Assembly (NCBI GenBank): GCA_965208905.1 | Contig: OZ242365.1 | Coordinates: forward strand, 1,728,001 to 1,792,000 | From: Nitrosopumilaceae archaeon | GTDB taxonomy: Archaea; Thermoproteota; Nitrososphaeria; Nitrososphaerales; Nitrosopumilaceae | Direction of reading: 5' to 3' | DNA: 64,000 bases | Shown: in pieces, positions 2,589 through 36,433 of the stretch | Layout of the letters: each line of letters starts with the position of its first letter | Position numbering within the stretch: the stretch's first letter is position 1 | Program-made: the position numbers and the translations under genes | The notes under the pieces: generated by a model | Databases searched by the model: none | What the model saw: only the letters and a program-made list of their open reading frames with translations | Told to the model about the DNA's origin: nothing

Positions 2589-2827
2589 ATTACCATATCA
2601 TGTGAGAGACGTTTAAAGGTTAAACACGTGAACTGTCACAAAATTGCGTGTAGGGCTTGATGGTGGAAACACCAACGATACGTTAGAGTGGTTTGATTAT
2701 GCAGAAACTCTAAGACTGATTATTACGGCGGCAGCACGGAATCATGCAGCCATGCGCGGAAAGTCCTGAAAGGCGAATGACAAACTCCGTCTTTTCCCTT
2801 TTATGCCGCCGCTACACTACACGTATA

Positions 2828-3448
2828 ATGATACCCCGTGCCATTCTCATTGAAGGCCACAAATACCGCACGCCCGGCGGCAACATATATCCCTCTGTAA
2901 CGACCATACTATCCAAGACCAGGAATACTGAGAGCATACGGCAGTGGCGTGATGATATAGGGCATTCGGTCGCCGACTACATCCTACAGCAAGCCGGTAT
3001 AATAGGTACGGAGACGCACCAGCTAAATGAAGATTATCTGTGTGGCAGGCCACAATACACATCAAAACTACTTGCACGGGCGCACCATGAGAATTTCAAA
3101 CCATACTTGAACAAAATAACCAACATCCTTGGCACCGAACTGCCCCTGTATTCAGACATGCTTGGTGTCGCGGGGACCGCAGACTGTATTGCCGCATACG
3201 ATGGTACGCTCAGTATAATCGACTACAAGACCAAACGTACCGCCCAGCAACCTGACTGGATTACCGACTATTACATACAGACTACTGCGTATGGTATAAT
3301 GCTTGAGGAGTTGGCCGGAATAACCATACGGCAGGGAGTCATTCTGGTATCTTCCGAGCAGGACACCATACAGGAGTTCATACTGGACGTGACACCATAC
3401 CGCGTACAATTCCTTGCGCGCCTTGAGCAATACAACAGAAACCTATGA
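2828..3448 (+). CDS. PD-(D/E)XK exonuclease (phage/MGME1-like)
   Basis: YPSVTTIL, GTETH, AGTADCIA, IIDYKT, YYIQTTAY; start chosen from upstream TATA-like box. Confidence 0.85.
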   Translation: MIPRAILIEGHKYRTPGGNIYPSVTTILSKTRNTESIRQWRDDIGHSVADYILQQAGIIGTETHQLNEDYLCGRPQYTSKLLARAHHENFKPYLNKITNILGTELPLYSDMLGVAGTADCIAAYDGTLSIIDYKTKRTAQQPDWITDYYIQTTAYGIMLEELAGITIRQGVILVSSEQDTIQEFILDVTPYRVQFLARLEQYNRNL

Positions 3449-3694
3449 CTGGGCAGCGCGGGCACGCGCCTCACTAACTAATACGAATAGACCATAACCC
3501 GATACTGCGGCAGCAACAAGCAATATTATGCCGAGAATCGAAACCGGTACAACCCACTCATCACATACAGTTTCGAAAACACACGCCTCACCGAAGGTGA
3601 AAAATATAAACCCCATAAGGACAGTTGCGGTTCCACAAACACATGCAAACCCAACGGCAAGCACATACTTCACTAACTTATTACTAACCATCAT
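3443..3694 (-). CDS. Small membrane protein
   Basis: Two hydrophobic segments; N-terminus resembles 3691-4080. Confidence 0.55.
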   Translation of the reverse strand: MMVSNKLVKYVLAVGFACVCGTATVLMGFIFFTFGEACVFETVCDEWVVPVSILGIILLVAAAVSGYGLFVLVSEARARAAQS

Positions 3695-4080
3695 TTTAAT
3701 TTCCCCTTTGTTATCTTAAGCATCTGTGTATTACTGAATAATGTGTATGCACCCAAACCCAATGCGAGTAAAGAGACAAGCAATACCATACCTAGAATCA
3801 GCATTGGTGCGTACCACTCCTCACCTACAAAGAATAAAAGTACGGCGATGATACCCACGCCTATACCACCACACATCAACCCACTCCAACCATACATCAT
3901 GGTAGCAAAGAGTGAAAACATACCAATAATCAACAATGGAAATGCGCATAAAGCCCCATCGATTTCACATGCAACGACAAGCTCACTAACAACAAACGCC
4001 AAAAAAACAGTTGTGGTTACACACGCACATACTAACCCAGTGAAAAAGACATACGACAGAAATTGTCTACTAACCCTCAT
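3691..4080 (-). CDS. Small multi-pass membrane protein
   Basis: Hydrophobic; overlaps the RNR stop and next ORF start by 4 bp. Confidence 0.6.
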   Translation of the reverse strand: MRVSRQFLSYVFFTGLVCACVTTTVFLAFVVSELVVACEIDGALCAFPLLIIGMFSLFATMMYGWSGLMCGGIGVGIIAVLLFFVGEEWYAPMLILGMVLLVSLLALGLGAYTLFSNTQMLKITKGKLK

Positions 4081-6806
4081 GCCAAATACCGTCCCACCGC
4101 ATCCGAAGGCACCGGGTCATACTGCACATTACTGCTCTCCAAAACCTGCACATCCCTGGACGTATCCCTATACACCGTGATGCCCCTACACCCAAGCGAG
4201 TGTGCTAATACATACGCATTACGCACGTCCTGTATGGTACAGTTGGCAGCCATGTTTATCGTCTTTGATATGCTGTTGCCCATCCATCGCTGCCATGCAG
4301 CTTGTGCAAATACATGATCCGTCCAGTGTATCTGTCGCGCCGTACAATACACATCAGCATCAGGTATCATATCCTGTATCATAACCCCGCCGTTTGCCGC
4401 CACCTGTTGTATAATATCTGGGTGTTTCAGCGACAATACGGGACACCCGTAATGGAATGTGCCGACCGATACGGTCTTTGTGTATGCTAGTGAGAACACA
4501 GGTTCTATGCCGGAACTGCACCCGGCAATCATCGATATCGTACCAGTGGGGGCTATTGTAGTCGTCAATACGTTTCGTATACCGTGTCGTGTAATGTCCT
4601 GCTTTAGCACATCCCAATCCAGTGTGGCGCGATACTCCCACTCATGATATGGATAATCATCACCGGCAAACGGCAATTTTCCATCCACATATGCGGACTG
4701 CCCAAACAACGGGAATGGTCCGTGCGTTTTGGCCAATTGTACGGATTCGGCCATCGAATGATATGATATCCACTCGGCTATCCTGCCAAATATACGGTAT
4801 GCCCCGGCAGAATTATACGGTATACCAAGATGCATCAGCATGTCTGCAACACCCATCACGCCAAGTCCGATACGACGCGTCTCGTTGCTTGCCTTCTCTA
4901 TCTGTACGGTGGGGTGGCGCGTCATGTCTACAACACCGTCCAGCATCCTGGTGCATACACGTATGTCCTCGGCCAAATACTCCCAGTCCAAATCACCACC
5001 ATCAACATACATTGCCAGATTGATGGACCCAAGATTGCATGACTCGTTTGGGTATAGAGCCTGCTCACCACAATTCCCCGATAATATGTAGTCATCCTCA
5101 CCGCACTGCACAAAGTAGTTGTGCGTCTGGTGCACCAGACCGTTGTACACATCAGTCTTGCCGAGCCGTATAATACCCAGTACCGTATGATTCTTCCGGA
5201 ACAGTTTGCCAAACAGACCGCCCTTCTCCGTTTGTACACCGGGTGTTATACCCTCGGACGTCATAAAGCCCTCGGATCTCTTTTTCTCCTTTTTCTTCTT
5301 ACCCTTCCGAGCAACTAGATTCATCGGCAGTATCCCCGGTGTGGGATGACCAGTACCCTCCAGTTGTATCTCCTGTATCTCATTATGCTTGACGCTGACG
5401 CCCATGGTCTGCTCCCAGATGTCATCATCTTTGTATAGGCTGGCCACACTCATACCCGGTGTCAGGTTCTGCACCTCTATCTTCTCCAATTGTGCATCAC
5501 GTATGACGTATACGCTGTGTGTAGGCGTGCAGCGCAGCGCGGTACACTCACCGGTCTGTTCGGAACACAACACCAGACACACTACTTCTGTATTCTGCGC
5601 AGTAATGCCCGGATTCTCCATTATGCGGTATGATAATGAACCATCCTCCTCCCGTGTAACGACCTGTACCTGAGAGGGGCCCAGAGCCAGATCCCGAAAC
5701 GATACGGGTCCATCCTTTGTCAATACCTTCGTTTCGCCTCCCCAACACGGATTGGTGCTGCGCAGTGGCTCACCCCTGGCCTTCTGTAACACGTTGTGCT
5801 TGTTGATGTTATCGAAGAATATTACGCCCGGTTCCGCAGAACGGTGCGCAGATGCGGCAATCTGGTCAAGTATGTTGTTTGCATCACTCTCCCCATTCTG
5901 TATGTCGTCCCAGAACCGTACATCAGTCCCCACTGATATGTTAAAGTTTGTCAGAGCCTGCCCGTGTTTTGCCATGATGAATTTCATGATATCCTTGTGG
6001 TGTACATCAAGTATGCCCATATTGGCGGCGCGTCGCCGACCACCCTGCTTTATGATATCACTCACCCCATCAACAAATCTCATGAATGATATCGGCCCCG
6101 AGGCTGCGGATGCCGTACTTCCCACACGCGCACCTTCAGGCCGCAACGATGAGTAGTTTATGCCCACACCCCCACCTGACTGGAATATCAATGCGGTGTT
6201 TTTTACGGTGTCCATTATGCCGGGCAAATTATCAGGTATGTGAAGCACGAAACATGCAGAGAGCTGCCCCAGAGGAGTGCCCGCATTCATCAAGGCCGGC
6301 GAGTTCGGCATGAATCTCCTGTCCATCATTATGTTATGGTATTGTTGCACGGTCTCACTGAATGAATCCAAGTCGCCCTTCTTCTTCCACTGCTTTCCCC
6401 TGTACGGTATAGTATGGAATGGCGTAATCTTAAACCCATGTATCATATTGGGCGGCTCGATACCACCAAGTATGGGCATTGCCATACACACGGCGACACG
6501 CCCGAACATCTCATGCGGCGTCTCAGTTGGCTTGCCATCACCATCATGCAGAAAGTACCGCTGCTTTAGGACGTGTAGAGCGTTTGATGTAAACCCCGAC
6601 CTGTACGACTTGTATTTTATGGCCTGTGTGGGATATCCCCGCTGTATTAGTTGGTCGGTAACATAATCATGTATAGATACAGCAGAGTCCCGGGGGGCCG
6701 TGATGGCTATCTCTTCGGCCACCTCTATATCGCAGCCGGCCTGTTGCAGACTGTGTTGTAGTTTTTTGGCATCAAAGTCCTCGGTTGTTCCTGTACGTTT
6801 GAGCAT
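4077..6806 (-). CDS. nrdJ: Adenosylcobalamin-dependent (class II) ribonucleotide reductase with N-terminal ATP cone and intein
   Basis: FMPNSPALMNAG, LSACFVL, NP[intein]CGEQ, ESCNLGSINL, RRIGLGVMG, TIAPTGTIS, SSGIEP, SISKTIN, GITVYRD. Confidence 0.92.
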   Translation of the reverse strand: MLKRTGTTEDFDAKKLQHSLQQAGCDIEVAEEIAITAPRDSAVSIHDYVTDQLIQRGYPTQAIKYKSYRSGFTSNALHVLKQRYFLHDGDGKPTETPHEMFGRVAVCMAMPILGGIEPPNMIHGFKITPFHTIPYRGKQWKKKGDLDSFSETVQQYHNIMMDRRFMPNSPALMNAGTPLGQLSACFVLHIPDNLPGIMDTVKNTALIFQSGGGVGINYSSLRPEGARVGSTASAASGPISFMRFVDGVSDIIKQGGRRRAANMGILDVHHKDIMKFIMAKHGQALTNFNISVGTDVRFWDDIQNGESDANNILDQIAASAHRSAEPGVIFFDNINKHNVLQKARGEPLRSTNPCWGGETKVLTKDGPVSFRDLALGPSQVQVVTREEDGSLSYRIMENPGITAQNTEVVCLVLCSEQTGECTALRCTPTHSVYVIRDAQLEKIEVQNLTPGMSVASLYKDDDIWEQTMGVSVKHNEIQEIQLEGTGHPTPGILPMNLVARKGKKKKEKKRSEGFMTSEGITPGVQTEKGGLFGKLFRKNHTVLGIIRLGKTDVYNGLVHQTHNYFVQCGEDDYILSGNCGEQALYPNESCNLGSINLAMYVDGGDLDWEYLAEDIRVCTRMLDGVVDMTRHPTVQIEKASNETRRIGLGVMGVADMLMHLGIPYNSAGAYRIFGRIAEWISYHSMAESVQLAKTHGPFPLFGQSAYVDGKLPFAGDDYPYHEWEYRATLDWDVLKQDITRHGIRNVLTTTIAPTGTISMIAGCSSGIEPVFSLAYTKTVSVGTFHYGCPVLSLKHPDIIQQVAANGGVMIQDMIPDADVYCTARQIHWTDHVFAQAAWQRWMGNSISKTINMAANCTIQDVRNAYVLAHSLGCRGITVYRDTSRDVQVLESSNVQYDPVPSDAVGRYLA
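5073..5747 (-). other. Mini-intein (225 aa) in the RNR NPCGE active-site motif
   Basis: Starts CWGGETKVLT, block B CTPTH, ends DVYNGLV...ILSGN with Cys+1; no homing endonuclease motifs seen. Confidence 0.88.
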
Positions 6807-6900: not shown

Positions 6901-7470
6901 TCAGTGAAGTAGGGAGCCCACCTTTTTTGGCTGTGTTACATATCTAAACAACGCGCCGGCAACCACTCCGGCCGCAACACCGCCAAGATGCGACACATAT
7001 GATACGCCCGGATCCCCAAAACCAATCATGCTTAGAACACCAAACAACGGCAGTACATTCAGTACCATCACGTAATATACGATGCTTCCTGCGCTGACGG
7101 TCCTATATACAATGGCGGCGCCGAACAGGCCTGATACTGCTGCGCTCGCCCCAATCAATGGAACATCAGTATACCACATATGCGCAACAGCCCCCACAAT
7201 ACCTGCCGTACAATACACAGGTATGATGTATAATCCTGCCTTCCCCTCCATACTGCGCCCAACAATCACCAGCATAAGCATATTGTACATCAGGTGTGCT
7301 ATACCTGCGTGACCGAACATGTATGTGATGATATTTGGAAAGAACTCATTATACGATACGGGCGTGCCGGCCAGCAATTGGTGTATTGTATGCAGGGCGT
7401 TCGGTGTGGTGTATACATAGGCGGCAAATATCAGTACGTTTAGTCCCAGCAGTGAGAGTGTGTATTTCAT
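6901..7470 (-). CDS. Rhomboid intramembrane serine protease
   Basis: FGHAGIAHLMYNM, GASAAVSG, SHLGG. Confidence 0.9.
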   Translation of the reverse strand: MKYTLSLLGLNVLIFAAYVYTTPNALHTIHQLLAGTPVSYNEFFPNIITYMFGHAGIAHLMYNMLMLVIVGRSMEGKAGLYIIPVYCTAGIVGAVAHMWYTDVPLIGASAAVSGLFGAAIVYRTVSAGSIVYYVMVLNVLPLFGVLSMIGFGDPGVSYVSHLGGVAAGVVAGALFRYVTQPKKVGSLLH

Positions 7471-7540
7471 GTTGATGTATTGTATTGATGGCATATAAGG
7501 AATGGATGGGATTCTATCCCAGATATTAAAAAACTAAATT

Positions 7541-7924: not shown

Positions 7925-9571
7925 TCACCTGCATGTGGGTATGGCTCCCAGTTTGATGAGCTCTTGGGCCCGCGACTGGTTTTGGTGTATGGTGGCGCCG
8001 GTTAGGTCCGCGCCATTCAGGGTGGCGCCGGTCAGGTCAGCACCACACAAAACCGCATTGCGGAAGTCCGCACCCGTAAAGTTGATGTTGGCCAGTCCCG
8101 CCCCGCTCAGGTCCGCGCCACGCAGGTCCGCAAACGTCACGTCTGTGCCATTGAAGCGGACGGGGTATGATGTGATGGAAAGTTGTGGGGGCGTATCCGT
8201 TTGGGCGGAGCTTGTCAGGTCGATGTTTGTCAGGTTGGCGAGTAGCGGTATAATGTCTGAAAATGATAAAACGCCCGGATGGTTGCCTGAAAAGTCAACG
8301 CCTGAGAGATTTGCATTGCGCAGGTCTGCGCCCGACAGGTTTGTGTTGTGTATTAGTGCCCTCCAGAGGTTTGCATTGCTCAGGTTTGCATTGCTCAGAT
8401 CCGCACCGTCCAGATGTGACGTTAGACGGGCGCCCTCCAGATTCGCACCCCGCAGGTTTGCAGCAGACAGGTATGCATCGGTTAGGTTTGCAAACTTCAG
8501 GTTTGCGCCTTCCAGATTCGCATGCCACAGGCGTGCACTTGTCAGGCTCATGCCCTCCATGTTTGCGCCCCGCAGATCCGCACCCGCTAAAAATATCGAC
8601 AGTTCCACCTCCCGCAGATCCGTATCACGCAGATCCACCCCGCGCATGTTGGCGTGTGTCAGGTCCACCTCCCGCAGGTCTGTGTCCCGTAGATCTAAAT
8701 CCGAGAGAACTGCATGCGCCATGCTTGCCCCCCGCAGATCCGAAGAATCCAGAGTTGCCCCCCGCAGATCCGAAGAATCCAGAGTTGCCCCCCGCAGATC
8801 CGTTTTTGACACAAATGCTTCCCGCAGATCTGCTCCCTCTAAATTCACATCTTTCATGACCATCTCCCAAAATTGCACATCTGTCAGGTTAGCCCCCTTT
8901 AGGTTTGCCCCGGTCATGTATGCAACATCTGCATCCACTCTCACCAGATCCGCACCCTCCATATCCACACCTTCTAGGTTACTCTTGTATAGACGTGCTC
9001 CCGACAGGTCCGCCCCCCGCAGATCCGCATACTGCAAGTTTATATGTTTTAGATCCGCCCCCCGCAGACTCGCCCCCTGTAGGTTCACATATCGCAGATC
9101 AGTACTTCTGATGTCCATGTGACTCATGTCTGTACCGATGAGAATCGCACCCCGCAATTTTGTATCCGCCAGGTTGGCGCCCCGCAGATCCGCATCTGTC
9201 AGATCCGCGCCCTGTAGTGTGGCGCCTGTCAGGTTGGCGCCCCGCAGATCCGCATCTGTCAGATCCGCGCCCTGCAGTGTGGCGCCTGTCAGATCCGCGC
9301 CCTGTAGTGTGGCGCCTGTCAGGTTGGCGCCGCGCAGGTTGGCAAATGCCATGTTTGTGCCAGACATGTTTAAGTCCGTCCCGGTTGAGAGTATGGCATA
9401 CTGCAGGTCCGCTCCCCGCAGGTCCGCATAAGACAGGTCCGTCTCTGTCAGGTTGGCGCCGAATAGATCCGCACCCGCCAAATCCTCGGCAGCCATGGAG
9501 ACGGCAACAGTGCCCGTTGCAGCGGCGAACACGATTGCCAATAATACTGGAATATGTATATCATGCCTCAT
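7925..9571 (-). CDS. Secreted pentapeptide-repeat protein
   Basis: Signal peptide followed by many A(D/N)LxG repeats. Confidence 0.92.
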   Translation of the reverse strand: MRHDIHIPVLLAIVFAAATGTVAVSMAAEDLAGADLFGANLTETDLSYADLRGADLQYAILSTGTDLNMSGTNMAFANLRGANLTGATLQGADLTGATLQGADLTDADLRGANLTGATLQGADLTDADLRGANLADTKLRGAILIGTDMSHMDIRSTDLRYVNLQGASLRGADLKHINLQYADLRGADLSGARLYKSNLEGVDMEGADLVRVDADVAYMTGANLKGANLTDVQFWEMVMKDVNLEGADLREAFVSKTDLRGATLDSSDLRGATLDSSDLRGASMAHAVLSDLDLRDTDLREVDLTHANMRGVDLRDTDLREVELSIFLAGADLRGANMEGMSLTSARLWHANLEGANLKFANLTDAYLSAANLRGANLEGARLTSHLDGADLSNANLSNANLWRALIHNTNLSGADLRNANLSGVDFSGNHPGVLSFSDIIPLLANLTNIDLTSSAQTDTPPQLSITSYPVRFNGTDVTFADLRGADLSGAGLANINFTGADFRNAVLCGADLTGATLNGADLTGATIHQNQSRAQELIKLGAIPTCR

Positions 9572-12500
9572 TTATCTCACCGTGATTATCACCAGGTCTT
9601 GCGATATATACTGGCCATCAGATACAGTAAGGGATATTCCTAGAAGACTCACACCGCTCGGAACGGTAACTGTAACCGAAGAGCCCGTCGCGCCAGATAG
9701 TATTTGTGATGGGCCGATTTGGACCTCCCACGTATACGTTAATGTGTCATTGTCCGGGTCGGTGGATGCGGCCCCGCTTAGTGTTATTGTATCGCCCACA
9801 CCGGCGGCATGGTCTGGACCGGCGTTGGCGGTGGGGGCGCGGTTGGGGGGCTTTACCGTTATGGTGACCGTATCGGTGCTGCTGAACTCGCCGTCGGATA
9901 TTGTAAGCTCAAACGTAATGGCGGCCACGCTGTCGGGAGCCGTAAACGTGGGGGATTGTACGGTGGTATCGGACAGCTTTGTACCGGTTCCGGATGTCTC
10001 GTTCCACAGGTATGTCACGTCATCATTGTCCGGATCATATGACGCCGAGCCGTCCAAGGTTACCGTATCGCCGAACCGTACGGTCTGGTCTGCACCCGCA
10101 CTGGCCACGGGGGGCCGGTTCACCACGGTTATCGTGACCGTATCGGTGTCTGTATCATATCCGTCCGATACGGTCAGCTCGAAAGTCAGCATGCCGGCGC
10201 TGCTCGGCGCCGTGAATGTAGGCGATGATGCGGCATCATCCGAGAGGGCTACGGTCGGACCAGATGTCTGGTTCCACATGTATGATATTGTATCGCCGTC
10301 CGGGTCGGTAGATGCGAAACCGTCCAGCGTTACCGTATCGCCTAACCGCACTGTCTGGTCTGCACCCGCATCGGATGTGGGTGGATGGTTCACCACGGTT
10401 ATGGCAACCGCATCCGTATGGGACAGCCATCCGTCCGATGCGGTAATCTCAAATGTCATGGTGGCCATACTTGCGGGCGCCGCAAATGAGGGCGACAGCG
10501 CCGCATTGTCTGATAGAATGACTGCCGGCCCCGATGTCTGGTTCCATACATATGATATGGCATCACCGTCGGGATCCGATGCGGAGCCGTCCAGCGTTAT
10601 AATATGGCCGAACCCTGCTGTCCGGTCTGCCCCCGCGTCAACTACCGGTGGGTGGTTGGCCACATGTATGGAGACCGTATCGGCATCGGAGTATATGCCG
10701 TCCGACACGGTCAGCTCGAATGTTATGGATGTGGTGGCGTTTGGCGTGGTGAAAGCGGGCTTTGGTATCATATGGTCGGACAGCGAGACTGCAATGCCGG
10801 CCGTCTGGTTCCATACATATGATATGGCATCGCCGTCGGGATCCGATGCGGAGCCGTTCAGTTGTATGGTCTTGCCGTATCCGGCAGTCCGGTCTATGCC
10901 GGCATCAGACATAGGCGGGCGGTTGGGCGGCCTGAGCACGTCTATAACAACCAAGTCCTGCGAGGAGTCCCAGCCGTCATGTACGGTAAGCAGGATGCCC
11001 AGCAGTGTAGGGCCGGTGGGGGCGACAAAACTGACTTGCGCGCCATCCGGGTTGGTCAAACTCACCCTCGGCCCTGTCACCACATTCCACGAATATGACA
11101 ATATGTCGCCGTCCGCATCGGTGGATGCTGCCCCGCTCAATGTCATGTTCTCGCCCGACTGGGCGGTCCAGTCAGGTCCTGCATTGGCCACGGGGTGCCG
11201 GTTCACCACATTTATGGCGACTGCATCGACATCGGAATATTCGCCGTCTGATACGGTCAGCTCAAACGTAATGGCGGCCGCGCTATCCGGGGATGTGAAC
11301 GTCGGCGATGGCGCCGTACCATTGGATAGTGTTACGGGAGGACCCGCCGTCTGCCTCCACAAGTATGACAATACGTCGTTGTCAGGATCATGTGAGGCCG
11401 AGCCGTTCAGCGATACGGTTTGCAGGCGATGCACGGTCTGGTCCATACCCGCATTGGCGGTCGGAAACCCCGCCACCGTGACTGTAACCGTATCCGTACC
11501 GGCATCATACCCGTCTGATACGGTCAGCTCAAACGTAAACGTACCGACATTGTCCGGTGCCGTGAATGTCGAAGATGGCGACATGTTATCCGACAGAATT
11601 ACGGCCGGACCCGCCGTCTGCCTCCATGTGTGCGATATTGTTCCGTTATCGGGATCCGTAGATGCCGAACCATTCAGCCTTACCACATCACCAAACCGTA
11701 CTGTCTGGTCCACTCCGGCATCGGCAAGCGGATGCATGTTGGGCGCCACCGTGACCGTCCTATTCTGCCGTACGGCCTGATTGCCCGCATCATCTGTCAC
11801 ATCATAGTGTATGTGATATGTGCCTGCCTTGGTAGTGTTCAGCGTGCTGGTTACTATTACCTTGGATGTGATGTCGCCATCCACATTGTCGGTGGCGTTG
11901 TAACCTGATTCAACATATGCAGAATTGAACGGCATGGTTATGTCCACATCGCCCCACAACGTAATTGTCGGTGCGGTGATGTCCGGAACGGTCACACTCC
12001 CCAACGGGATGTATTTATGGCTTCCATCATTTAGGGTAACGCCCAGTGCATACGAGTACGTGCCGCCTTCCTCCACACCATGATCCTCGACTGCTATATC
12101 TTTGGTAGATGCACCCATATTTGCGTCGGTTGTTAATCGTGAGTGTGCCTCAGTACCTGCGGTATTGATAGTTACCACCACATCCGGATGGGTGCTGGTC
12201 GTAGTTTCCGATATGACCGCAACAACATCCCACGCAGCGTTGTTTTTGTGCTGTTGCGGTTTGGCAGAGTCGCCATGCGACGAGCTGGCATAGTCGGTTC
12301 CTCGGATAAGATTTATGATGTTGCAAAACACGCGGTTTCGTTCATCGTCGCCGTTGACGCATTTGAGAACCTCCACAGATGAGACATATAATATGAGATC
12401 CAGCCCTTCCGCACCAGGTCCGAGTTTTTTAATGCTAGCTTTAAATGTCGATTTTGGTTTTTTTGTATTTTGTTGTTCATCACTTTCAAATTTTATTTCA

Positions 12501-27791: not shown

Positions 27792-27813
27792 ACCACAATC
27801 CCTACTATACAAT

Positions 27814-28414: not shown

Positions 28415-28616
28415 ATGCAATGAATGCCATACGATACACATGTCGACAATGGAAGTACCGCGTCCCGATACGGATGCCTCACGGCCGCCGCGCTACACAC
28501 TATCACAGATTCTGGCCAATATCACATCACATACGGTAATACTTGATGCCAAAGACGATGCAGGTGCCATAACAATGGCTGAACTATACATGATGCGTCT
28601 AAGTCCTGGTGCTTGA
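28398..28616 (+). CDS. Small CxxC protein running into the repeat array
   Basis: CNECH; overlaps the upstream ORF. Confidence 0.35.
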   Translation: MNPLLKCNECHTIHMSTMEVPRPDTDASRPPRYTLSQILANITSHTVILDAKDDAGAITMAELYMMRLSPGA

Positions 28617-29645
28617 CTAGTCGAGTATGGCCAGTCGATAAGACGCTGCATGGTTGACTAGTCATGTTGTATGTATCATGTATGATGCGTCTAAGTCCTG
28701 GTGCTTGACGTCATGTATAATGCATCATGACTAGTCGAGTATGGGTAGTCGATAAGATGCTGCATGGCCAGGGTTAAGGCGCCATACTGTTGACTAGTCA
28801 TGCATGGTAGTGGCATGGCGTCATGTTACCAGGGTTAAGGCGCCATACGGTTGACTAGTCATGTTGTATGTTGCATGTATCATGTGTCATGCGTCTAAGT
28901 CCTGGTGCTTGACGTCATGTATCATGGGTAGTCGATAAGATGCTGCATGGCCAGGGTTAAGACGTAACACGGTTGACTAGTCATGTTGTATGTTGCATGC
29001 AGTATGTATCATACATCATGACTAGTCATGTATGGTAGTTGTATGGCGCCGGCATGCGACCAGTCGATAAGGCGCTGCATGGCCAGGGTTAAGACGTAAC
29101 ACGGTTGACTAGTCATGTTGTATGTTGCATGCAGTATGTATCATACATCATGACTAGTCAAGTATGGTAGTGGCATGACGTCATGTGGCCAGTCGATAAG
29201 ACGCTGCATGGCCAGGGTTAAGGCGCCATACGGTTGACTAGTCATGTTGTATACATGATGCGTCTAAGTCCTGGTGCTTGACTAGTCGAGTATGGTAGTG
29301 GCATGGCGCCGGCATGCGGCCAGTCGATAAGGCGCCATACGGTTGACTAGTCATGTTGCATATATCATGCATGATGCGTCTAAGTCCTGGTGCTTGACTA
29401 GTCATGTGTCATGGCCAGTCGATAAGACGCTGCATGGCCAGGGTTAAGGCGCCATACGGTTGACTAGTCATGTTGCATATATCATGTATAATGCATGATG
29501 CGTCTAAGTCCTGTTGGTTGACTAGTCATGTATGGTTGTTGTATTATATGACTAGTCATGTATCATGCGTCTAAGTCCGGGTGCTTGACGTCATGCATCA
29601 TGTATAATGCATCATGACTAGTCGAGTATGGTAGTGGTATGGCCG
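28591..29645. repeat. Non-coding modular repeat array, block 1
   Basis: Shuffled modules TGACTAGTCA, ATGCGTCTAAGTCCTGGTGCTTGAC, AGTCGATAAGACGCTGCATGG, CCAGGGTTAAGGCGCCATACGG, GAGTATGGTAGTGGCATGG. Confidence 0.92.
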
Positions 29646-29667
29646 ATTGTTGTATGTTTTAAAAAAA

Positions 29668-31437
29668 CTATGGGTAACCAATAGCGTTAGTAAGATCGGC
29701 GTCCAGTAAATTGGCGTCCAGTAAGTTGGCTAACGTTAGGTTGGCTTCCTGTAAGTTGGCATCCCGTAGGTTGGCTCTATGTAGGTTGGTACCAACTAGG
29801 TTGGCGCCTACTAGGTCGGCGCCGTATAGGTTGGCGAACTGTAGGTCGGCGCCCAGTAGGTTGGCTAAAAATAGGTTGGCGCCTACTAGGTCGGCGCCGT
29901 ATAGGTTGGCATCATGTAGTATGGCGTACTGTAGGTTAGATTCTTGTAGGTTGACATCATGCATGTTGGCATCATATAGGTTGGCTCCCTGTAGGTTGGC
30001 TTCCAGTAGGTTGGCTCCCAGTAGGTTGGCTTCCTGTAGTATGGCATTCTGTAGGTCGGCGTAGAATAGGTTGGCGCCCTGTAGGTTGGCATCATATAGT
30101 ATGGCGCCCAATAATATGGCGCCCTGTAGGTTGGCGTTCTGTAGTATGGCATTCTGTAGGTTGGCGTTCTGTAGTATGGCATTCTGTAGGTTGGCGCCAT
30201 CTAGTGCGGCACCCCGTAGGTAGGCGCCCTGTAGGTCGGCATCAACTAGGTTGGTATTCCGTAGGTTGGCGCGCCGTAGGTCGGCTAAAGATAGTGTGGC
30301 GCCGGCTAGGTCGGCGTTCCGTAGGTTGGCGCCCTGTAGGTCAGCACCGTGTAGTTTAGCGCTCCGTAGGCTAGCGCCCTGTAGGTTGGCATCAACTAGG
30401 TCGGCGCCGTATAGGTTGGCGAACTGTAGGTCGGCGCCCAGTAGGTTGGCTAAAAATAGGTTGGCGCCTACTAGGTCGGCGCCGTATAGGTTGGCATCAT
30501 GTAGTATGGCGTACTGTAGGTTAGATTCTTGTAGGTTGACATCATGCATGTTGGCATCATATAGGTTGGCTCCCTGTAGGTTGGCTTCCTGTAGGTTGGC
30601 TCCCAGTAGGTTGGCTTCCTGTAGGTTGGCTTCCTGTAGTATGGCATTCTGTAGGTCGGCGTAGAATAGGTTGGCGCCCTGTAGGTTGGCATCATATAGT
30701 ATGGCGCCCAATAATATGGCGCCCTGTAGGTTGGCGTTCTGTAGTATGGCATTCTGTAGGTTGGCGTTCTGTAGTATGGCATTCTGTAGGTTGGCGCCAT
30801 CTAGTGCGGCACCCCGTAGGTAGGCGCCCTGTAGGTCGGCATCAACTAGGTTGGTATTCCGTAGGTTGGCGCGCCGTAGGTCGGCTAAAGATAGTGTGGC
30901 GCCGGCTAGGTCGGCGTTCCGTAGGTTGGCGCCCTGTAGGTCAGCACCGTGTAGTTTAGCGCTCCGTAGGCTAGCGCCCTGTAGGTTGGCATCAACTAGG
31001 TCGGCGCCGGCTAGGATGGCGCTCCGTAGGCTAGCGCCCTGTAGGTCGGCGTTCCGTAGGTTGGCGCCCTGTAGGTTGGCGAGGTTTAGTGTAGCGCCCT
31101 GTAGTTTAGCGCCCTCTAAGTTGGCGCCCTGTAGGTCGGCTAAAAATAGGTTGACATCCTGTAGGTTGGCGTCCGCTAGGTCGGCACCCTGTAGGTTGGC
31201 GTCCGCTAGGTCGGCACCCTGTAGGTTGGCGTTCTGTAGTATGGCACCCTGTAGGTTGACTTCATATAGGTTGGCGTTCTGTAGTATGGCGCCCGTTAGA
31301 TTAAAGCCGGCCATATTGGCGCCGGCAAAGTTCCGATTCTGTAAATCCTGGAATGAAAGATCTTCATGTGCGACTGCAGCCGGCCATGCAGACACAATAA
31401 GAATGAATGATAACAATAACAACAAGTAACCATTCAT
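29668..31437 (-). CDS. Secreted pentapeptide-repeat protein with about 600-bp internal tandem duplication
   Basis: Signal MNGYLLLLLSFILIVSAWPAAVA; ANLQG repeats; lines 30061-30400 identical to 30661-31000. Confidence 0.92.
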   Translation of the reverse strand: MNGYLLLLLSFILIVSAWPAAVAHEDLSFQDLQNRNFAGANMAGFNLTGAILQNANLYEVNLQGAILQNANLQGADLADANLQGADLADANLQDVNLFLADLQGANLEGAKLQGATLNLANLQGANLRNADLQGASLRSAILAGADLVDANLQGASLRSAKLHGADLQGANLRNADLAGATLSLADLRRANLRNTNLVDADLQGAYLRGAALDGANLQNAILQNANLQNAILQNANLQGAILLGAILYDANLQGANLFYADLQNAILQEANLQEANLLGANLQEANLQGANLYDANMHDVNLQESNLQYAILHDANLYGADLVGANLFLANLLGADLQFANLYGADLVDANLQGASLRSAKLHGADLQGANLRNADLAGATLSLADLRRANLRNTNLVDADLQGAYLRGAALDGANLQNAILQNANLQNAILQNANLQGAILLGAILYDANLQGANLFYADLQNAILQEANLLGANLLEANLQGANLYDANMHDVNLQESNLQYAILHDANLYGADLVGANLFLANLLGADLQFANLYGADLVGANLVGTNLHRANLRDANLQEANLTLANLLDANLLDADLTNAIGYP

Positions 31438-31477
31438 GTGTTTACGTCTGGCGTTGTGGTTATAGTTGTTTGTGGTG

Positions 31478-31881
31478 CATGGTTGACTAGTCATGTATCA
31501 TGGGTAGTCGATAAGACGCTGCATGGCCAGGGTTAAGGCGCCATACGGTTGACTAGTCATGCATCATGCAGCATGGCCAGTCGATAAGATACTGCATGGT
31601 TGACTAGTCATGTTGCATGTATCATGCATGATGCGTCTAAGTCCTGTTGGTTGACTAGTCATATTGCATGTATCATGTATCATGCATGATGCGTCTAAGT
31701 CATGTATGGTTGACTAGTCGAGTATGGCCAGTCGATAAGACGCTGCATGGCCAGGGTTAAGGCGCCATATGGTTGACTAGTCATGTATCATGTATAATGC
31801 ATCATGACTAGTCGAGTATGGTAGTGGCATGGCGGCCTGCATGCAGCCAGGGTTAAGATGCCATACTGTTGACTAGTCATA
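31478..31881. repeat. Non-coding modular repeat array, block 2
   Basis: Same modules as 28591-29645. Confidence 0.9.
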
Positions 31882-32170
31882 CAAGTCCAAGAGGCGGCTT
31901 GTGGAGAACGGCAAATATGAGTTGAACCGCGACAACACCACAATACACACAATACATGTGGGCTCATATTCGGATGACTAGTTGCCGGTCTAACCTTCCC
32001 TGCGCTCCAACCTATCAAGTCGTCTTTTAAGAGACTCGATTATACATGACGAATACTTTAGATTGTAGCCGCTTGTCGCAACCGAGCGCATTTCCAGATT
32101 CGCCCATATGGAATCGACCTTGCGCTCCAATTCATTCAGCCGCAATACCATATCCGTCATGGTTAATGCA

Positions 32171-33636
32171 GGGAATTATATACAAAAGTACACAACCCAG
32201 ATTCTGAGAGTTAATGCCTGAACCACGGATCTCGTCCATACAACTCCCCTTAAATACTAGTATGCCGTATTATATATTATGATACGTATAGTTAAGGTAC
32301 CGCTACGGAGGGATGTGTTGTTTGCAGGGTGGGCGCACCGCACGAATCATGCGTCAAGATATGTGTACAACCGCGCCGTATCAGAGTATTTGTTTGGTGG
32401 CGAATATATGGAGAGGGTGGTAGTGGACATCCTGCAGCCCTTCAAACTACCGGGCAAACTTAGTTTTACATCAGGTATGCTGGACGATGACTACCATACA
32501 TATGATTTTGGGCCATCAAAGAATGTATTAAAGTACGGCATGTTCAAGCAGCTTACGGAGTGGCGCGCTGAACATGCATGGGTATCTGACTTGCCTATGG
32601 TGTTTGGTAGGGGCGCCATACAGGATGCCTCTATCGCATGTAGAAGAGTTATACATGACAACTCCGGCCACGCGCCATACCGCCGCAAAGACGGCCGCAT
32701 CATATTGAGTTCCGTTACACCGCCTATACAGAAAGGCGAGCACACCATACATATCCCCGGATATGGTATTGTAGAGACCGCCAAGCCCATCAATGTATTA
32801 TGGGACATGCGCTCATTCAAGATAGTTGATGTCACCAAACGGGTGGACAAGCATACCAAACCATCAGACCACATGTTTGAGCTGCATATTGCCGTGCGTG
32901 TACCGGTCGAGCCGCACCGTAATACGGGTGTAATACGTGGTGTTGATGTGGGCGGCAAGCACCTCGCCGTCACGGTAGATACGGACGGCAACGTCACAAT
33001 ACATGATACAAGACACAGACGCATACTGCGGGAGATTGATGCTCTCAAGAGTTTGCGCGACCGCAAGACACGGCATGGCCGGAAGTGGCATATATTGAAT
33101 GACCAAATAAAGCGGCTATACAGGAAGGCCAACAACATAGCCGCGAACACCATAAATCAGACGATTGCGCAGATAACTAATGGTATGGACGCAGTCGTGG
33201 TCGAGTCGCTCTCTATACAGGATATGACCACACATGGCGGGAATTACAAACGCGCCATGAACCGTTCAATGCGGGAGAACCATGTTGGGGAGTTCCTGCG
33301 CAAGCTTGCGCAGTGGTGCGAGATGCATAACATACCGCTGTTGGGGGCATCGGCCAAATATACGAGCCAGACGTGCCATGTGTGTGGTCACGTAGACTCA
33401 GAGTCGCGTATATCACGCGACAAATTCATTTGCACTAACTGTACCAGGGTATTCCACGCGGATGTCAATGCCGCCTGGAACATTCTGCATAGGGCGGCGG
33501 GGAACGTCGTCCTAAGACGGCCGGGGCACAAGGAGGGCTACAAGCCAACACCTTCTATGCTCCACTCCATACAACGAGGTCGTCAGAAAAGGCTTGAGTG
33601 TGCAGCCGAGGCTGTGTACTTTTGTATATAATTCCC
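32171..33636 (+). mobile_element. Transposase-less TIR element with IS1595-type ends carrying tnpB
   Basis: Perfect 24-bp TIR GGGAATTATATACAAAAGTACACA at 32171-32194 and 33613-33636; TSD TTAATGCA at 32163-32170 and 33637-33644. Confidence 0.92.
32279..33631 (+). CDS. tnpB: RNA-guided endonuclease TnpB
   Basis: RYVYN N-terminus; RuvC-I RGVDVG; RuvC-II VVESL; YTSQTCHVCG...FICTNC zinc finger; RuvC-III HADVNAAWNI. Confidence 0.92.
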   Translation: MIRIVKVPLRRDVLFAGWAHRTNHASRYVYNRAVSEYLFGGEYMERVVVDILQPFKLPGKLSFTSGMLDDDYHTYDFGPSKNVLKYGMFKQLTEWRAEHAWVSDLPMVFGRGAIQDASIACRRVIHDNSGHAPYRRKDGRIILSSVTPPIQKGEHTIHIPGYGIVETAKPINVLWDMRSFKIVDVTKRVDKHTKPSDHMFELHIAVRVPVEPHRNTGVIRGVDVGGKHLAVTVDTDGNVTIHDTRHRRILREIDALKSLRDRKTRHGRKWHILNDQIKRLYRKANNIAANTINQTIAQITNGMDAVVVESLSIQDMTTHGGNYKRAMNRSMRENHVGEFLRKLAQWCEMHNIPLLGASAKYTSQTCHVCGHVDSESRISRDKFICTNCTRVFHADVNAAWNILHRAAGNVVLRRPGHKEGYKPTPSMLHSIQRGRQKRLECAAEAVYFCI

Positions 33637-33693
33637 TTAATGCATCCTCAACCTTTCCCATTATTCATCACCCCCTGTATGTCCGGTACAATT

Positions 33694-34740
33694 CTATGAC
33701 TCCAGCCTCATTGGAATGTATTGTTTTGTAATGTAATCCAGTCCCTTCTCGGCAAACGCCTGCAGCTCAACCTTCTGTTTTATCTTAATGAAGTGCTTTA
33801 GTTCGCGCTGCCACATGTCTCCTGCAAAGCGCGGGTCCAGTAGGGTTTGCTTACATTTCTTTATGTCTACCTCCTTCATGGGGATTGTAACTTTAAAGTC
33901 GTACTCTGTGATATCGGTGGCCCACACACCCATCCATTTGGCATTGGGTACGACCAAATCGCGCAGGTGCGCGGACTGCGCAGAGCCGGCAGATATCACC
34001 CTTGCTATGTACATCCCCCACGGGTCTGCATCCGTAAATACGTATAGTGGCAGCTTGAACTGCTTTGTTATTCGGTGCAATACAATACGCGCGTTGCGCG
34101 ATGCCTGGCCGTTCAGGTCTACAATGATTGCCTTGTATTTGTCAACAATGCCGTCCTCGTACAGTCTTGTGAACGTGTCTGTTTTTTCAACGGCAATAAC
34201 ACACTCGGCGCCCGTCCTTACATACTCGGCGGTCGCCAAGGCAGGCGATATGCTCATGCCGTCCGGTATGGCATCCAACCTCATCTGCTTTCCTATATAT
34301 TTTGGGACAGTGTATTGTATCAGCATATCACCGTATATCGAGTTGCGTTCTGCCGGATACACGCCCAATAACTCGCGCGGCGTCTGCGTGACAGCCTCCA
34401 GATCGAATATCGTCTTGTCGGACTCGGACTGCGCATCGAACATATCAGGTAGTACGGACATGGATGCATAATACAGTCCGCGCATCGTAGTTGTCTTGCC
34501 CTGTTGCAGTAGCCCGTCCGATAACGAGGCGGCCCATATGAGCTGCATCATTGATTTTGCCGTGCTTACGTTGCCTGCAGAGCGCTCGGCTACCCCGTCG
34601 CCCAACACGTACTGCTTTGTGGCATCATCATATACGATGTTTGACGTATTGCGCGAAGGCACGCCAATTTTGGGAAACTCGCCCCTCTGTACACTCCTCA
34701 GATACTCCTCTGCCATGTTGCGCAGTTTTTCGCGTATCAT
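33694..34740 (-). CDS. top6A: DNA topoisomerase VI subunit A
   Basis: TMRGLYY catalytic Tyr, IAVEK, FTDADPWG Toprim, KVELQA. Confidence 0.9.
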   Translation of the reverse strand: MIREKLRNMAEEYLRSVQRGEFPKIGVPSRNTSNIVYDDATKQYVLGDGVAERSAGNVSTAKSMMQLIWAASLSDGLLQQGKTTTMRGLYYASMSVLPDMFDAQSESDKTIFDLEAVTQTPRELLGVYPAERNSIYGDMLIQYTVPKYIGKQMRLDAIPDGMSISPALATAEYVRTGAECVIAVEKTDTFTRLYEDGIVDKYKAIIVDLNGQASRNARIVLHRITKQFKLPLYVFTDADPWGMYIARVISAGSAQSAHLRDLVVPNAKWMGVWATDITEYDFKVTIPMKEVDIKKCKQTLLDPRFAGDMWQRELKHFIKIKQKVELQAFAEKGLDYITKQYIPMRLES

Positions 34741-36314
34741 AATACAGCCTCCACGGATGGTGTCTCTGTATTGCATATTGCGGCGGCGCGCTCCGTGCCA
34801 ATCACAAGATACTTGCGCAGTGCCTCCTGACGCTCCCTACTGCGCCTTTCCGCATGTTTTGCGTGTATGTAGGTCTTTGTTTTTTTGCCCAACTCCCATA
34901 CGCCCATCTGCACTTCGCGTGTTATCTCCGGGCGGTCCGCCACACCCTCCTTCCCTACGGACTTGTAGGGGACGCGCGTACTGCATATGTGAACACAAAT
35001 GGCTACCGGATCCTCCTCAATGTTTATGCCATATCGCTTCCAAAGTGCTTTGTTGTGTATCGTACAATATAGTGCATCTCCCTTCTCTCCATACAGTAAT
35101 GGTATGCGGTTCGCAAAACGATACACCCCAGGCTGTTTTATCTTACCCCCATATGCTATACCCATCTCTATGATGCATGGCCAACCACCATACGCGAATG
35201 GCCTGCGTTGTATCGTATGGATAACGTCGGGCTCAAATATAGTCTCCATGCCTTTTTGTAGTAGGCATGCCCCAAGGGGTGCTAGTACAGAAGATGTGGG
35301 CTTACTCCACTTCTCATATGATGCCATTGCATCGGCGAGCAGCACAACATCATTGTCTGAGAGTAGCCATATGGGAGTATCTGGTGGTAGATCCACATAC
35401 GAACAGAAGGACTGCGCGGTCTTGGGCCCGATGGTATCAAACGTACTTAGAAATTTCACAAGCCGTGGAGAGTGTTGTGTAATCTTCTTCACCTCGGCGG
35501 CCTTAAGGTTGTGCTGTACATCAGTATATAGAATGCGGTTGGGCAGATCAAGCGAGCGGACGTCCTCACCATTATACTTCTCATGTATAGTCTCTTGTAT
35601 CAGTCTGGTTATTGTTTCAGCATCCGTGCCCTGTGGGTGGGGTGTTGTGTTACGTGGTGGTTCCGGTACTACATCGGTGACGCGCCTGATGTTGATATTC
35701 TCACCGCGCGGTCCACTATACGTGATATTCGCGTATGGTGTGATTATACCGTTGTATTCGATATATCTGTGAATCTGTGTTGCCGCAAGTGAGTAGTTGC
35801 CGCGCAGGGTGCATCGTATCTCGGTCCCACTATGTTCACGGAGTTCCGTATGCTTTGATTTTATAATTGGTTTGTTGTGTTTTATGTCCAAAGTCATTAC
35901 ATATGTGGTCCAGCGCTTGCCGGTCCCGCTGGACACAACAAACGGGGTACGCGACGTAATCTGCCCGTACAGTATGGCCATAGTGGCGCCCATGCCGAAC
36001 ATGCCGCGCGCCTGCTTTAGTCCGAACTTACTGCCGTACATTATACTGCCAAATACTTCGGGTATGACGTCTGCGGGCAGCCCAGGCCCGTTATCGCGCA
36101 CCGTAATTGTATAGTCTGTCGGGTCTTTGCCCTCCCCCTCTATGCCAAGATATATGTCGGCAGGTATGCGCGCCGAGTCGCATGCATCAAGCCCATTCTC
36201 AAAGAACTCGCGTATGCCTGTGTATATTGCCTGTGTTGGGTTGCCAAAGCCGGCCATATCGCGGTTCTGGCAGAAGAATTCGGATGGCGATATTTGCTTG
36301 AACTTCTCGGACAC
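34737..36314 (-). CDS. top6B: DNA topoisomerase VI subunit B
   Basis: SPSEFF, REFFENGLDA, DNGPG, GSKF..QARG.FG.GA, RFANRIPLLY, VPYKSVGKE. Confidence 0.92.
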   Translation of the reverse strand: MSEKFKQISPSEFFCQNRDMAGFGNPTQAIYTGIREFFENGLDACDSARIPADIYLGIEGEGKDPTDYTITVRDNGPGLPADVIPEVFGSIMYGSKFGLKQARGMFGMGATMAILYGQITSRTPFVVSSGTGKRWTTYVMTLDIKHNKPIIKSKHTELREHSGTEIRCTLRGNYSLAATQIHRYIEYNGIITPYANITYSGPRGENINIRRVTDVVPEPPRNTTPHPQGTDAETITRLIQETIHEKYNGEDVRSLDLPNRILYTDVQHNLKAAEVKKITQHSPRLVKFLSTFDTIGPKTAQSFCSYVDLPPDTPIWLLSDNDVVLLADAMASYEKWSKPTSSVLAPLGACLLQKGMETIFEPDVIHTIQRRPFAYGGWPCIIEMGIAYGGKIKQPGVYRFANRIPLLYGEKGDALYCTIHNKALWKRYGINIEEDPVAICVHICSTRVPYKSVGKEGVADRPEITREVQMGVWELGKKTKTYIHAKHAERRSRERQEALRKYLVIGTERAAAICNTETPSVEAVL

Positions 36315-36433
36315 ATGGGCACAGCATATTCATTCCTTTTAAGGCGGGTGCTGGCTTGAGGGTGTCAGGAACTTATGAATCTACAAAACATGGTGAAGTG
36401 GTAAGTTAACAGCCGCTTGGAATATGATCGTTT

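Follow-up and report, generated by a model that had tools for sequence, protein, structure and literature searches.

The stretch of DNA described here, a window of 64,000 nucleotides, corresponds to positions 1,728,001-1,792,000 of the single contig (C1) that makes up the 2,214,775-bp genome, 99.6% complete, of a Nitrosopumilaceae archaeon. This host genome is designated G000, and the related genomes used for comparison carry designations of the same form (G005, G009, and so on). On the basis of gene content, phylogeny, nucleotide composition, and genome comparison, a very large mobile element is most probably integrated here, of which positions ~1-50,900 of the window represent the right arm only. 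A probability of roughly three in four is assigned to the reading that this element is an integrative-conjugative element (ICE) or an integrated conjugative megaplasmid of the kind known from Thaumarchaeota, scrambled by insertion sequences (IS). The original prediction, made from the letters of the window, had placed a mobile element with duplicated core functions at positions 2660-36346. That reading is supported by the duplicated genes, the trees of the ribonucleotide reductase (RNR) and of the topoisomerase VI B subunit (Top6B), and the atypical composition, but the proposed limits are not: the feature extends well beyond them on both sides, to ~190 kb. G000 encodes an archaeal AmoA (amoA), and DNA nearly identical to this genome occurs in sponge and marine metagenome runs, with no RNA run among those listed. 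We thus assign the host to the amoA-bearing Nitrosopumilaceae associated with sponges or the sea.

The atypical composition spans positions 1.585-1.779 Mb of G000 (~190 kb), where the GC content is 50.2% versus 45.2% elsewhere in the genome. In 20-kb intervals, the tetranucleotide distance to the genome mean (x 10^-3) has a median of 8.2 over the genome and stays at 13-21 without a break between ~1.59 and 1.77 Mb. It is normal again near 1.775 Mb, and within the window the composition is atypical up to ~45 kb. An island-like tetranucleotide profile was observed in 42 of the 46 8-kb intervals inside the region versus 61 of 506 outside, a comparison that is partly circular because the island profile was built from the same inner intervals. 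The four inner intervals without this profile include a 2-kb core patch carrying tRNA-Ile and AhpC and the IS-rich stretch at positions 36-44 kb of the window, in parts of which the GC content falls to 0.42-0.43. The accessory region is interrupted both by the core patch and by many insertion sequences, in which G000 as a whole is rich: 13 near-identical copies of an IS3-type element are present, and ~60 protein matches were obtained for a TnpB element. Backbone sequence, 96% identical to that of G005, starts at position 53742. A comparison with the backbone in composition and read coverage had been suggested at the outset; the composition differs, and contig depth is similar on both.

The window carries a divergent second set of enzymes that the host already possesses. 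An element-type class II (B12) RNR (TIGR02504) is encoded on the minus strand at positions 4077-6806. The 909-residue frame is without stops and scores 597.3 bits with the TIGR02504 model, NrdJ_Z (cut-off 399.95), and its N-terminal ATP-cone is weak (Pfam, 1.5e-4). A mini-intein of 225 residues (residues 354-578, nucleotides 5073-5747) lies within the NPCGE active-site motif. All canonical relatives lack residues 355-578, and the motif is restored, NPC to GE, across the intein. The canonical RNR of G000, located at 550,563-553,220, contains 885 residues, lacks an intein, and displays a strong ATP-cone; its gene adjoins EMG1/Nep1 and lies near RNase P Rpr2, a housekeeping neighborhood. In a tree of 47 proteins, constructed by a quick method, the window RNR and 15 database relatives form one clade (16 rows, SH-aLRT 100) with a long stem. 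The host's own copy falls in a separate clade (99), which comprises 21 canonical RNRs of Thaumarchaeota.

Divergent second copies of both topoisomerase VI (Topo VI) subunits are likewise encoded on the minus strand. Top6A (positions 33694-34776) contains the Pfam TP6A_N and Toprim domains, and the short Top6B of 525 residues (positions 34737-36314) contains HATPase_c and Topo-VIb_trans. In NCBIfam, Top6B scores 467 bits with NF003218 (cut-off 274), and Top6A scores 319 bits with NF003335, under the cut-off of 424. The canonical pair is found at 55-58 kb of G000, and the window pair is 48% (A) and 41% (B) identical to it. The YY and DxD stretches of Top6A and the DNGPG/GxxGxG stretches of Top6B, which we take to hold the catalytic residues, align with the canonical copies. 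The element Top6B lacks ~73 residues between the ATPase and transducer domains, and the motifs of both domains are retained. Judged by sequence, it is a genuine Topo VI of two subunits, with a shortened linker region in the B subunit. In a tree of 29 Top6B proteins, which has no outgroup and in which long branches meet, the window copy, along with a few other divergent sequences, occupies a long branch outside the clade of 22 canonical Top6B proteins (100). The trees proposed with the original prediction therefore agree with it, since neither window enzyme groups within the clade of its host counterpart. As a separate observation, G006 has a second canonical-length Top6B (contig C1, 1,570,504-1,572,255 and 1,756,955-1,758,694), and a Top6B pseudogene with eight stops is found in G003 (contig C9, 12,843-14,259). 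Duplication of Topo VI thus recurs in the genus, independently of the 525-residue type.

A TATA-box-binding protein (TBP) is encoded on the plus strand at positions 18888-19415. Both of its PF00352 repeats, at 79.8 and 51.2 bits, exceed the Pfam cut-off of 22.9, and the protein is considered divergent because all NCBIfam TBP equivalogs remain below their cut-offs. There are four TBP loci in G000, and the window TBP is 28-39% identical to the others. Among the 31 genomes searched, the window type is found at full length only in G005, G001, G009, G003, and G034, along with a fragment in G008. Next to it, on the plus strand at positions 19561-20592, is the gene for a 343-residue protein with an ATP-cone (Pfam, 5.6e-13), and this gene pair is also adjacent in G005 and G009. 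Note that the ATP-cone is N-terminal and followed by a C-terminal part without assignment, and that the element RNR's own cone is the weak one described above; the 343-residue protein may be an allosteric or regulatory partner. A phage-type PD-(D/E)XK exonuclease (plus strand, positions 2744-3448) matches Pfam PDDEXK_1 at 2.6e-6 and PHROG 298, "exonuclease," at 4.5e-55; a homologue, 58% identical, lies inside the G009 element. The RadA fragment predicted near position 48243 corresponds to an open reading frame (ORF) on the minus strand, 48104-48421, that is 80% identical to the first 76 residues of the full RadA at 1608045-1609043 of G000. Searches of Pfam, NCBIfam, and PHROG confirmed the class II RNR, TBP, Topo VI A and B, exonuclease, rhomboid, crotonase, VirD4-like ATPase, and membrane partners first recognized in the window, and the possibility that these are the only copies in the genome does not hold, separate canonical nrdJ, top6A/B, and tbp genes being present elsewhere.

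The putative transfer module of the window is a four-gene operon on the minus strand, composed of two ATPase genes and two membrane-protein genes. The first ATPase (positions 23097-25355) is VirD4/TraG-like and belongs to the HerA-FtsK superfamily; it scores 45 bits with TrwB_AAD_bind (cut-off 20.5) and 28.5 bits with TraG-D_C (cut-off 22) in Pfam. The second (positions 25300-27375) is a FlaI/TadA-type secretion ATPase, as judged by its matches in NCBIfam (FlaI, 2.4e-58; TadA, 3.8e-39; both below their cut-offs) and in the PDB (2oap, 3e-42; FlaI, 1e-40; CpaF, 1e-28). It had been called VirB11-like. A secretion ATPase is indeed present, but it is closer to FlaI, TadA, and CpaF than to VirB11. 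Its intein of 204 residues (residues 354-557, nucleotides 25705-26316) is situated in the His box and ends C...HN before a T, so that both inteins noticed at the outset are accounted for. The membrane proteins, encoded at positions 21420-22909, were delineated by hydropathy: one of 205 residues has an N-terminal transmembrane (TM) segment, and one of 291 residues has four to five. Neither matches a family in NCBIfam or in Pfam, including matches at E ≤ 1, and the ESM Atlas gave no usable match for the 291-residue protein. In G003, G009, and G005, both genes likewise neighbor the VirD4-like gene.

Further components lie to the left of the window. In this left arm, a VirB4-like ATPase at 1632452-1634287 of G000 matches Pfam AAA_10 (1e-13) and P-loop_TraG (5.7e-9) as well as the PDB entry for VirB4, 4ag5 (1.8e-7), and has a 77% identical homologue inside the G009 element. 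A TadC-like gene lies at 1679458-1681329; the G003 protein that matches its product at 63% identity contains a Pfam T2SSF domain (2.7e-15). Second copies of information-processing genes are also found there, with the following identities to the other copy: Rad50 29%, Mre11 37%, RadA 90%, Hjc 37%, MCM 35%, and PriL 31%. The second HerA lies in two ORFs. The left arm additionally encodes another TBP, all four of the TFBs (the window has none), and large unassigned proteins of 1501, 1085, 946, 874, and 844 residues, together with an anti-restriction gene, a Doc toxin, many restriction-modification systems, and extra tRNAs.

A search of the whole of G000 with PF00589 gave no match. Integrase-family loci are nevertheless present at 1,720,637-1,722,097, 6 kb to the left of the window, and at 557,768-559,183, 2,100,156-2,100,652, and 2,173,994-2,175,389. 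The first encodes a 487-residue protein, p487, without a Pfam match, which starts 7 nucleotides past the 3' end (1,722,105) of the unique tRNA-Ile(GAT). A paralogue starts 42 nucleotides past tRNA-Lys(CTT), where a second GC-rich island (558-600 kb) begins; both spacings use the ORF starts as called. The relic at 2.100 Mb retains 14 nucleotides of the tRNA-Ile end. The p487 family, whose members contain ~400-490 residues, has 1725 representatives at E ≤ 1e-3 and no Pfam model of its own. Its alignment reveals an invariant R...HxxR...H...Y signature, its profile matches the archaeal XerA (5hxy) at 8.8e-9, and PF00589 is matched by 23 of 48 family members; p487 is therefore interpreted as a divergent tyrosine integrase. 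The absence of an integrase, as initially remarked, is true of the window itself and not of its surroundings.

Comparison with related genomes argues that the two arms belong together. In G009, of the same genus, homologues of 31 window and left-arm genes are contained in a 113-kb block between 2,343,285 and 2,455,990, which terminates in an integrase 8 bp from a tRNA. On the 59-kb contig C22 of G003, the order is TadC-p550-p1085, then hyp1291-RNR-two membrane genes-VirD4-FlaI followed by Hjc, with PriL also on the contig. G005 contains a frameshifted integrase as well as Top6B, an interrupted Top6A, FlaI, VirD4, and a membrane gene within 25 kb; further pieces of the element are scattered elsewhere in its genome. 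The distribution is patchy. Element-type RNR occurs in five of 10 genomes of the genus and in none of 31 outside it, and the 525-residue Top6B in two of the 10 (G000 and G005); across the family, 21 of 121 genomes, counting the unpublished G099, have the VirD4-like gene, and 36 of 121 have the VirB4-like gene. When the VirD4-like protein was searched against genome contigs, only a record equivalent to G005 was matched, and no match was obtained among metagenome contigs. Core MetH is 98% identical to that of G000 in G005, 73% in G008, 70% in G009, and 62% in G003. The corresponding values for the element are 79-91% in G005 and 84-98% in G008 at the DNA level and 62-77% in G009 and 64-72% in G003 at the protein level. 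The figures for G005 and G008 do not fit vertical descent, and those for G009 and G003 appear compatible with it. In a separate comparison, the core sequences of G000 and G005 proved 96-98% identical, with synteny only in blocks of a few kilobases (for example, positions 53742-59779 of the window). Massive IS-mediated rearrangement is implied for this symbiont lineage, and the element borders are not definable by synteny with G005 because both genomes are scrambled into small blocks.

Under the ICE or conjugative megaplasmid reading, integration into the tRNA-Ile gene would have been catalyzed by the divergent tyrosine recombinase whose gene immediately follows the 3' end of that tRNA. The element would then be transferred via a hybrid type-IV-secretion/type-IV-pilus apparatus, to which the window would contribute the FlaI/TadA-type ATPase, the VirD4/TraG-like ATPase, and the two membrane proteins, and the left arm the VirB4-like ATPase, a platform protein resembling TadC, and the large unassigned proteins. 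Element-borne helpers of replication and expression would include the intein-bearing RNR, Topo VI A and B, the exonuclease, and TBP with its ATP-cone partner from the window, and MCM, PriL, RadA, Mre11-Rad50-HerA, Hjc, the second TBP, and the four TFBs from the left arm. The PKD and pentapeptide surface proteins, the rhomboid, and the crotonase would be cargo.

Several observations weigh against this reading. The tRNA-Ile/integrase junction is in the left arm, and the window arm lies across the core patch from the integrase; the status of the two as one element in G000 rests, because of the position of that junction, on the comparison with G009 and G003 and on an assumed IS rearrangement. A search for an att repeat at the far end was negative both in G000 and in the part of G009 retrieved, and neither element is therefore delimited at both ends. 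ParB families were not found among the scanned ORFs of the window (E ≤ 1e-3), of locus L010 (1e-5), or of the rest of the left arm (1e-6). TM segments are lacking in the VirD4-like protein, which resembles curated VirD4 families only weakly and matches the solved TrwB structure in the PDB at no better than 5e-4. The element identities in G009 and G003 are close to the core identities of 70% and 62%, which long vertical residence would fit as well, and the evidence from G008 consists of short contigs (~5 kb) of a 210-contig metagenome-assembled genome and is possibly mis-binned. G005, G008, and G009 carry broken versions of the element RNR, Top6A and the integrase are broken in G005, and HerA is split in G000; these lesions suggest decay. 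No excision or circle joint was seen in the contigs of four public runs, which as assembled data cannot show rare forms. The contig depth in the likely source run, a weak measure, is ~9-14 on unique parts of the element versus 9.1 on the backbone. The copy in G000 is probably degraded and rearranged and may be immobile. A joint between positions 48242 and 50260 in contigs of runs X1 and X6 was considered as an excision product and rejected; it matches the G005-type arrangement, which lacks a 2-kb insert.

A more ambitious interpretation of the same genes, entertained only tentatively, is that of a lineage of 100-200-kb semi-autonomous replicons in sponge-associated ammonia-oxidizing archaea, equipped with a near-complete second information-processing kit, transferred across species by VirB4, VirD4, FlaI, and TadC, and inserted at tRNA genes by tyrosine recombinases. 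TBP and the TFBs would redirect the host RNA polymerase, MCM and PriL would replicate the element, and Topo VI would decatenate it. The RNR with its intein would supply dNTPs, perhaps under the control of the separate ATP-cone protein, and RadA, Mre11-Rad50, and Hjc would serve recombination. The arrays of the motif TTGACTAGTCA, described below, would be the origin or partition site.

Less likely is a mosaic genomic island, in which unrelated mobile elements, IS rearrangements, and segmental duplications would have accumulated at one recombination-prone site and the extra genes would be piecemeal acquisitions or old host paralogues. Such an origin would account for the scrambling of gene order in G000 and G005 into blocks of a few kilobases, for at least seven IS copies in the window, for the core patch with tRNA-Ile that splits the region, for the GC dips at 36-44 kb, and for the PKD/pentapeptide block, which duplicates a segment of another island. 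It would also suit the Topo VI pair, present in G000 and G005 and absent from the G009 and G003 elements, and the failure to find Rad50, Mre11, and RadA in a 120-kb region of G009. It does not readily explain, however, why 31 genes of both arms are contiguous in one G009 block ended by a tRNA and an integrase, why genes of both arms are intermixed on a single 59-kb contig of G003, or why the integrase relic of G005 lies within 25 kb of Top6B, Top6A, FlaI, and VirD4. The tetranucleotide signature, uniform in 42 of 46 intervals, also speaks against it.

It is improbable that an extrachromosomal megaplasmid was mis-joined to the chromosome by the assembler via shared IS copies. The window arm is bounded on both sides by multi-copy IS (13 and 12 copies), and no listed contig of the likely source run bridged the borders between element and backbone. 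G000 is, on the other hand, a single contig, and its left arm abuts the unique tRNA-Ile through the integrase gene, a typical integration junction. The similar contig depths of ~9-14 and 9.1, weak measure as they are, argue in the same direction, and G009 and G005, complete or nearly so, also hold copies inside chromosomal contigs.

A provirus of a large archaeal virus encoding RNR, exonuclease, and transcription factors is scarcely credible: the exonuclease and RNR match phage families, and DUF5131 phage-type proteins and tRNA genes are present in the left arm, but no capsid, portal, or tail family was found among 25 window and 87 left-arm proteins compared with PHROG (archaeal virus structural proteins being poorly covered), the only "terminase" matches are the P-loops of the VirB4- and VirD4-like ATPases, and the VirB4, VirD4, TadC, FlaI, and anti-restriction genes point to conjugation. 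The lack of a recognizable capsid in the window had been remarked at the outset, and no structural PHROG was found among its 25 proteins.

At the left edge of the window, positions 1-737 (plus strand) hold the 3' part of an IS3-family insertion sequence with an rve transposase (Pfam rve/rve_3); this is the element with 13 near-identical copies in G000, its orfA is situated immediately outside the window, and it bounds the arm on the left. The left copy of a 1.8-kb direct repeat follows at 790-2652, with an HTH gene at 790-1290 (plus strand), the conserved element gene hyp1291 at 1291-2094 (minus strand; N-terminal TM segment), and small ORFs at 2208-2652. The product of hyp1291 shares 71% identity with its counterpart in G009 and 46% with that in G003, where it is encoded near the element RNR. 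The right copy, at 47181-50898, is decayed and carries a 2-kb insert with the RadA fragment and a Yip1 gene. The repeat pairs are 836-1500/47181-47845 (84%), 1703-1915/48030-48242 (89%), and 2208-2652/50452-50898 (98%), and the right repeat ends where the 12-copy IS begins (position 50891). Two insertion sequences occupy the interval between element and backbone at 50891-53629, assigned by Pfam and copy number: an HTH transposase at 50969-51703 and an IS110 at 52337-53347. ARAGORN identified no tRNA genes in the window, and no Rfam family matched anywhere in it at gathering thresholds.

The presumed cargo begins with a rhomboid protease paralogue (minus strand, positions 6901-7494; Pfam, 9.6e-21), which is 29% identical to its paralogue in the same genome and has homologues in the G005 and G009 elements. 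A block at 7925-15208 is composed of a secreted pentapeptide protein (7925-9571), a PKD-rich PKD/Ig surface protein of 1684 residues (9572-14626), and a small ORF. It is a segmental duplicate: positions 7925-15042 correspond, inverted, to 569277-562150 of G000 with 91.2% identity over 7154 nucleotides. The other copy lies in the second GC-rich island, which extends from 557,649 to ~600,000 and opens with tRNA-Lys and an integrase. Besides this 91% PKD/pentapeptide duplicate, that island contains a crotonase fragment, a TIR gene resembling Thoeris ThsB, and an IS110 that shares 86% identity with the IS110 of the window. An enoyl-CoA hydratase (crotonase) paralogue is encoded at 15222-16031 (minus strand; Pfam ECH_1, 8.4e-33), with identities of 38% to its paralogue in the same genome, 91% in G005, and 61% in G009. 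Two unassigned genes at 16152-18555 encode proteins of 330 residues and of 394 residues with an N-terminal TM segment. Neither matches Pfam, NCBIfam, or PHROG; the former is 87% identical in G005, and its ESM Atlas leads are all below 0.9. Nothing credible was obtained when 18 unassigned proteins were searched against Pfam at E ≤ 1.

To the right of the transfer operon, a 589-bp MITE-like insert (27517-28105) displays perfect 49-nucleotide terminal inverted repeats and has repeat-like matches of 82-88% in G006 and G009. Two iteron-like non-coding arrays, at 28577-29643 and 31480-31883, flank a pentapeptide gene on the minus strand (29668-31494). The non-coding repeat arrays that had been described in this area are real at these two sites, whereas the 15/30/45-nucleotide periodicity at 29698-31291 is that of the coding pentapeptide gene. 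The arrays are built of tandem units of 117-132 nucleotides and modules of 38-96 nucleotides, and all 16 genomic copies of a palindrome-containing motif, TTGACTAGTCA, fall within them. The whole cassette (28591-31878) is absent from G005; the arrays may be an origin, a partition site, or cassette ends. An IS200/IS605-type TnpB insertion sequence (plus strand, 32158-33640; Pfam OrfB_IS605 and Cas12f1-like_TNB) has 12 full copies in G000 and is missing at this site from G005.

Beyond the Topo VI genes, the arm has a mosaic tail (36434-47180), assigned with Pfam, that includes two membrane proteins, a TPR gene, an LVIVD protein, an IS3 copy (38003-39264), a 516-residue element gene (39881-41431) with a paralogue in the left arm at 1655315-1656885 of G000, an IS1595 (42040-43027), an MTase-HNH module (43033-44491), and an AAA_33 kinase (44838-45326) that is 57% identical to a protein inside the G009 element. 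The MTase-HNH module, beside the IS1595, consists of a small methylase-like ORF and a fusion of an N6/N4 DNA methylase with an HNH nuclease. Four copies exist, 35-62% identical, the others being located at 1,043,642-1,044,985, 1,371,244-1,372,668, and 159,989-161,404 of G000. Two features of the left arm are recorded here as well. A defense-like trio (DUF499, a DUF1156-methylase, and an SNF2-type helicase) is found at 1,646,399-1,654,584 among MmeI, NotI, Dcm-Vsr, and Dam-type systems. The tRNA loci of that arm, at 1,664,528-1,664,679 and 1,672,832-1,672,904, comprise an odd 73-nucleotide tRNA called Ser(ACT), followed at once by a second tRNA-Arg(TCG), and a second tRNA-Met(CAT).

Because integrated conjugative elements are already known in Thaumarchaeota, the kind of element is not new. 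The main text of Krupovic et al. 2019 (PMC6563490) describes thaumarchaeal ICEs with a median size of 64 kb, VirB4, VirD4, VirB6, TadC, and FlaI components, TFIIB often coupled to ParB, frequent integration into tRNA genes, varied replication modules (MCM, Cdc6, PolB, or primases), IS insertions, and metabolic cargo. The present element resembles those of that account in its VirB4/TrbE- and VirD4/TraG-like ATPases, TadC, FlaI, replication genes, IS, and cargo; its left arm also has TFIIB homologues and an integrase gene adjacent to a tRNA gene. It differs in its size, ~190 kb here and 113 kb in G009, in its sponge- or marine-associated Nitrosopumilaceae host, in that no ParB was found and its integrase escapes direct detection by PF00589, and in carrying a class II RNR with an intein, Topo VI A and B, TBP, PriL, RadA, Mre11-Rad50-HerA, and Hjc. 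A search of the text of that paper, its supplements aside, turned up no RNR, TBP, Rad50, or Topo VI cargo and only a type IA topoisomerase. For Sulfolobus conjugative plasmids of the pNOB8 type, it reports VirB4- and VirD4-like ATPases, no recognizable relaxase, and possible integration by a tyrosine recombinase (PMC6563490). A topoisomerase review (PMC8185306) lists a single type IIB enzyme for its thaumarchaeal example.

The likeness to the pNOB8-type plasmids, as they are portrayed there, lies in an archaeal conjugation gene set with VirB4- and VirD4-like ATPases and no recognizable relaxase, and in the use of a tyrosine recombinase by which they can integrate. Those plasmids are much smaller (tens of kilobases) and come from hyperthermophilic Crenarchaeota, and we know of no duplicated Topo VI, RNR, or TBP set on them. 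Haloarchaeal megaplasmids and minichromosomes are large secondary replicons with extra TBP, TFB, and replication genes; they are free and belong to another phylum, whereas the element described here is integrated, linked to a tRNA, and accompanied by conjugation genes. Plasmid-borne type IIB topoisomerases (Topo VIII) have reportedly been described by Gadelle and colleagues in 2014. The Topo VI of the window is similarly a type IIB topoisomerase on a mobile element, but unlike Topo VIII it has two subunits that are not fused. A literature search found no description of such an element in ammonia-oxidizing archaea. What is unusual is its large size, its rich duplicated information-processing cargo, and an integrase family without a model of its own.

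One element lineage thus holds divergent spare copies of Topo VI, class II RNR, MCM, PriL, RadA, Mre11-Rad50, Hjc, TBP, and TFB. It offers a natural pair of Topo VI enzymes for comparison, one with a shortened linker in its B subunit, two fixed inteins at active sites, and a large unnamed integrase family (the 1725 representatives noted above) found beside tRNA genes in the loci examined. The element is also a candidate vehicle of gene flow among uncultured sponge symbionts. If the spare copies are active, it would be close to a second, mobile mini-chromosome, and it could then explain the origin of divergent paralogues of archaeal replication and transcription genes.

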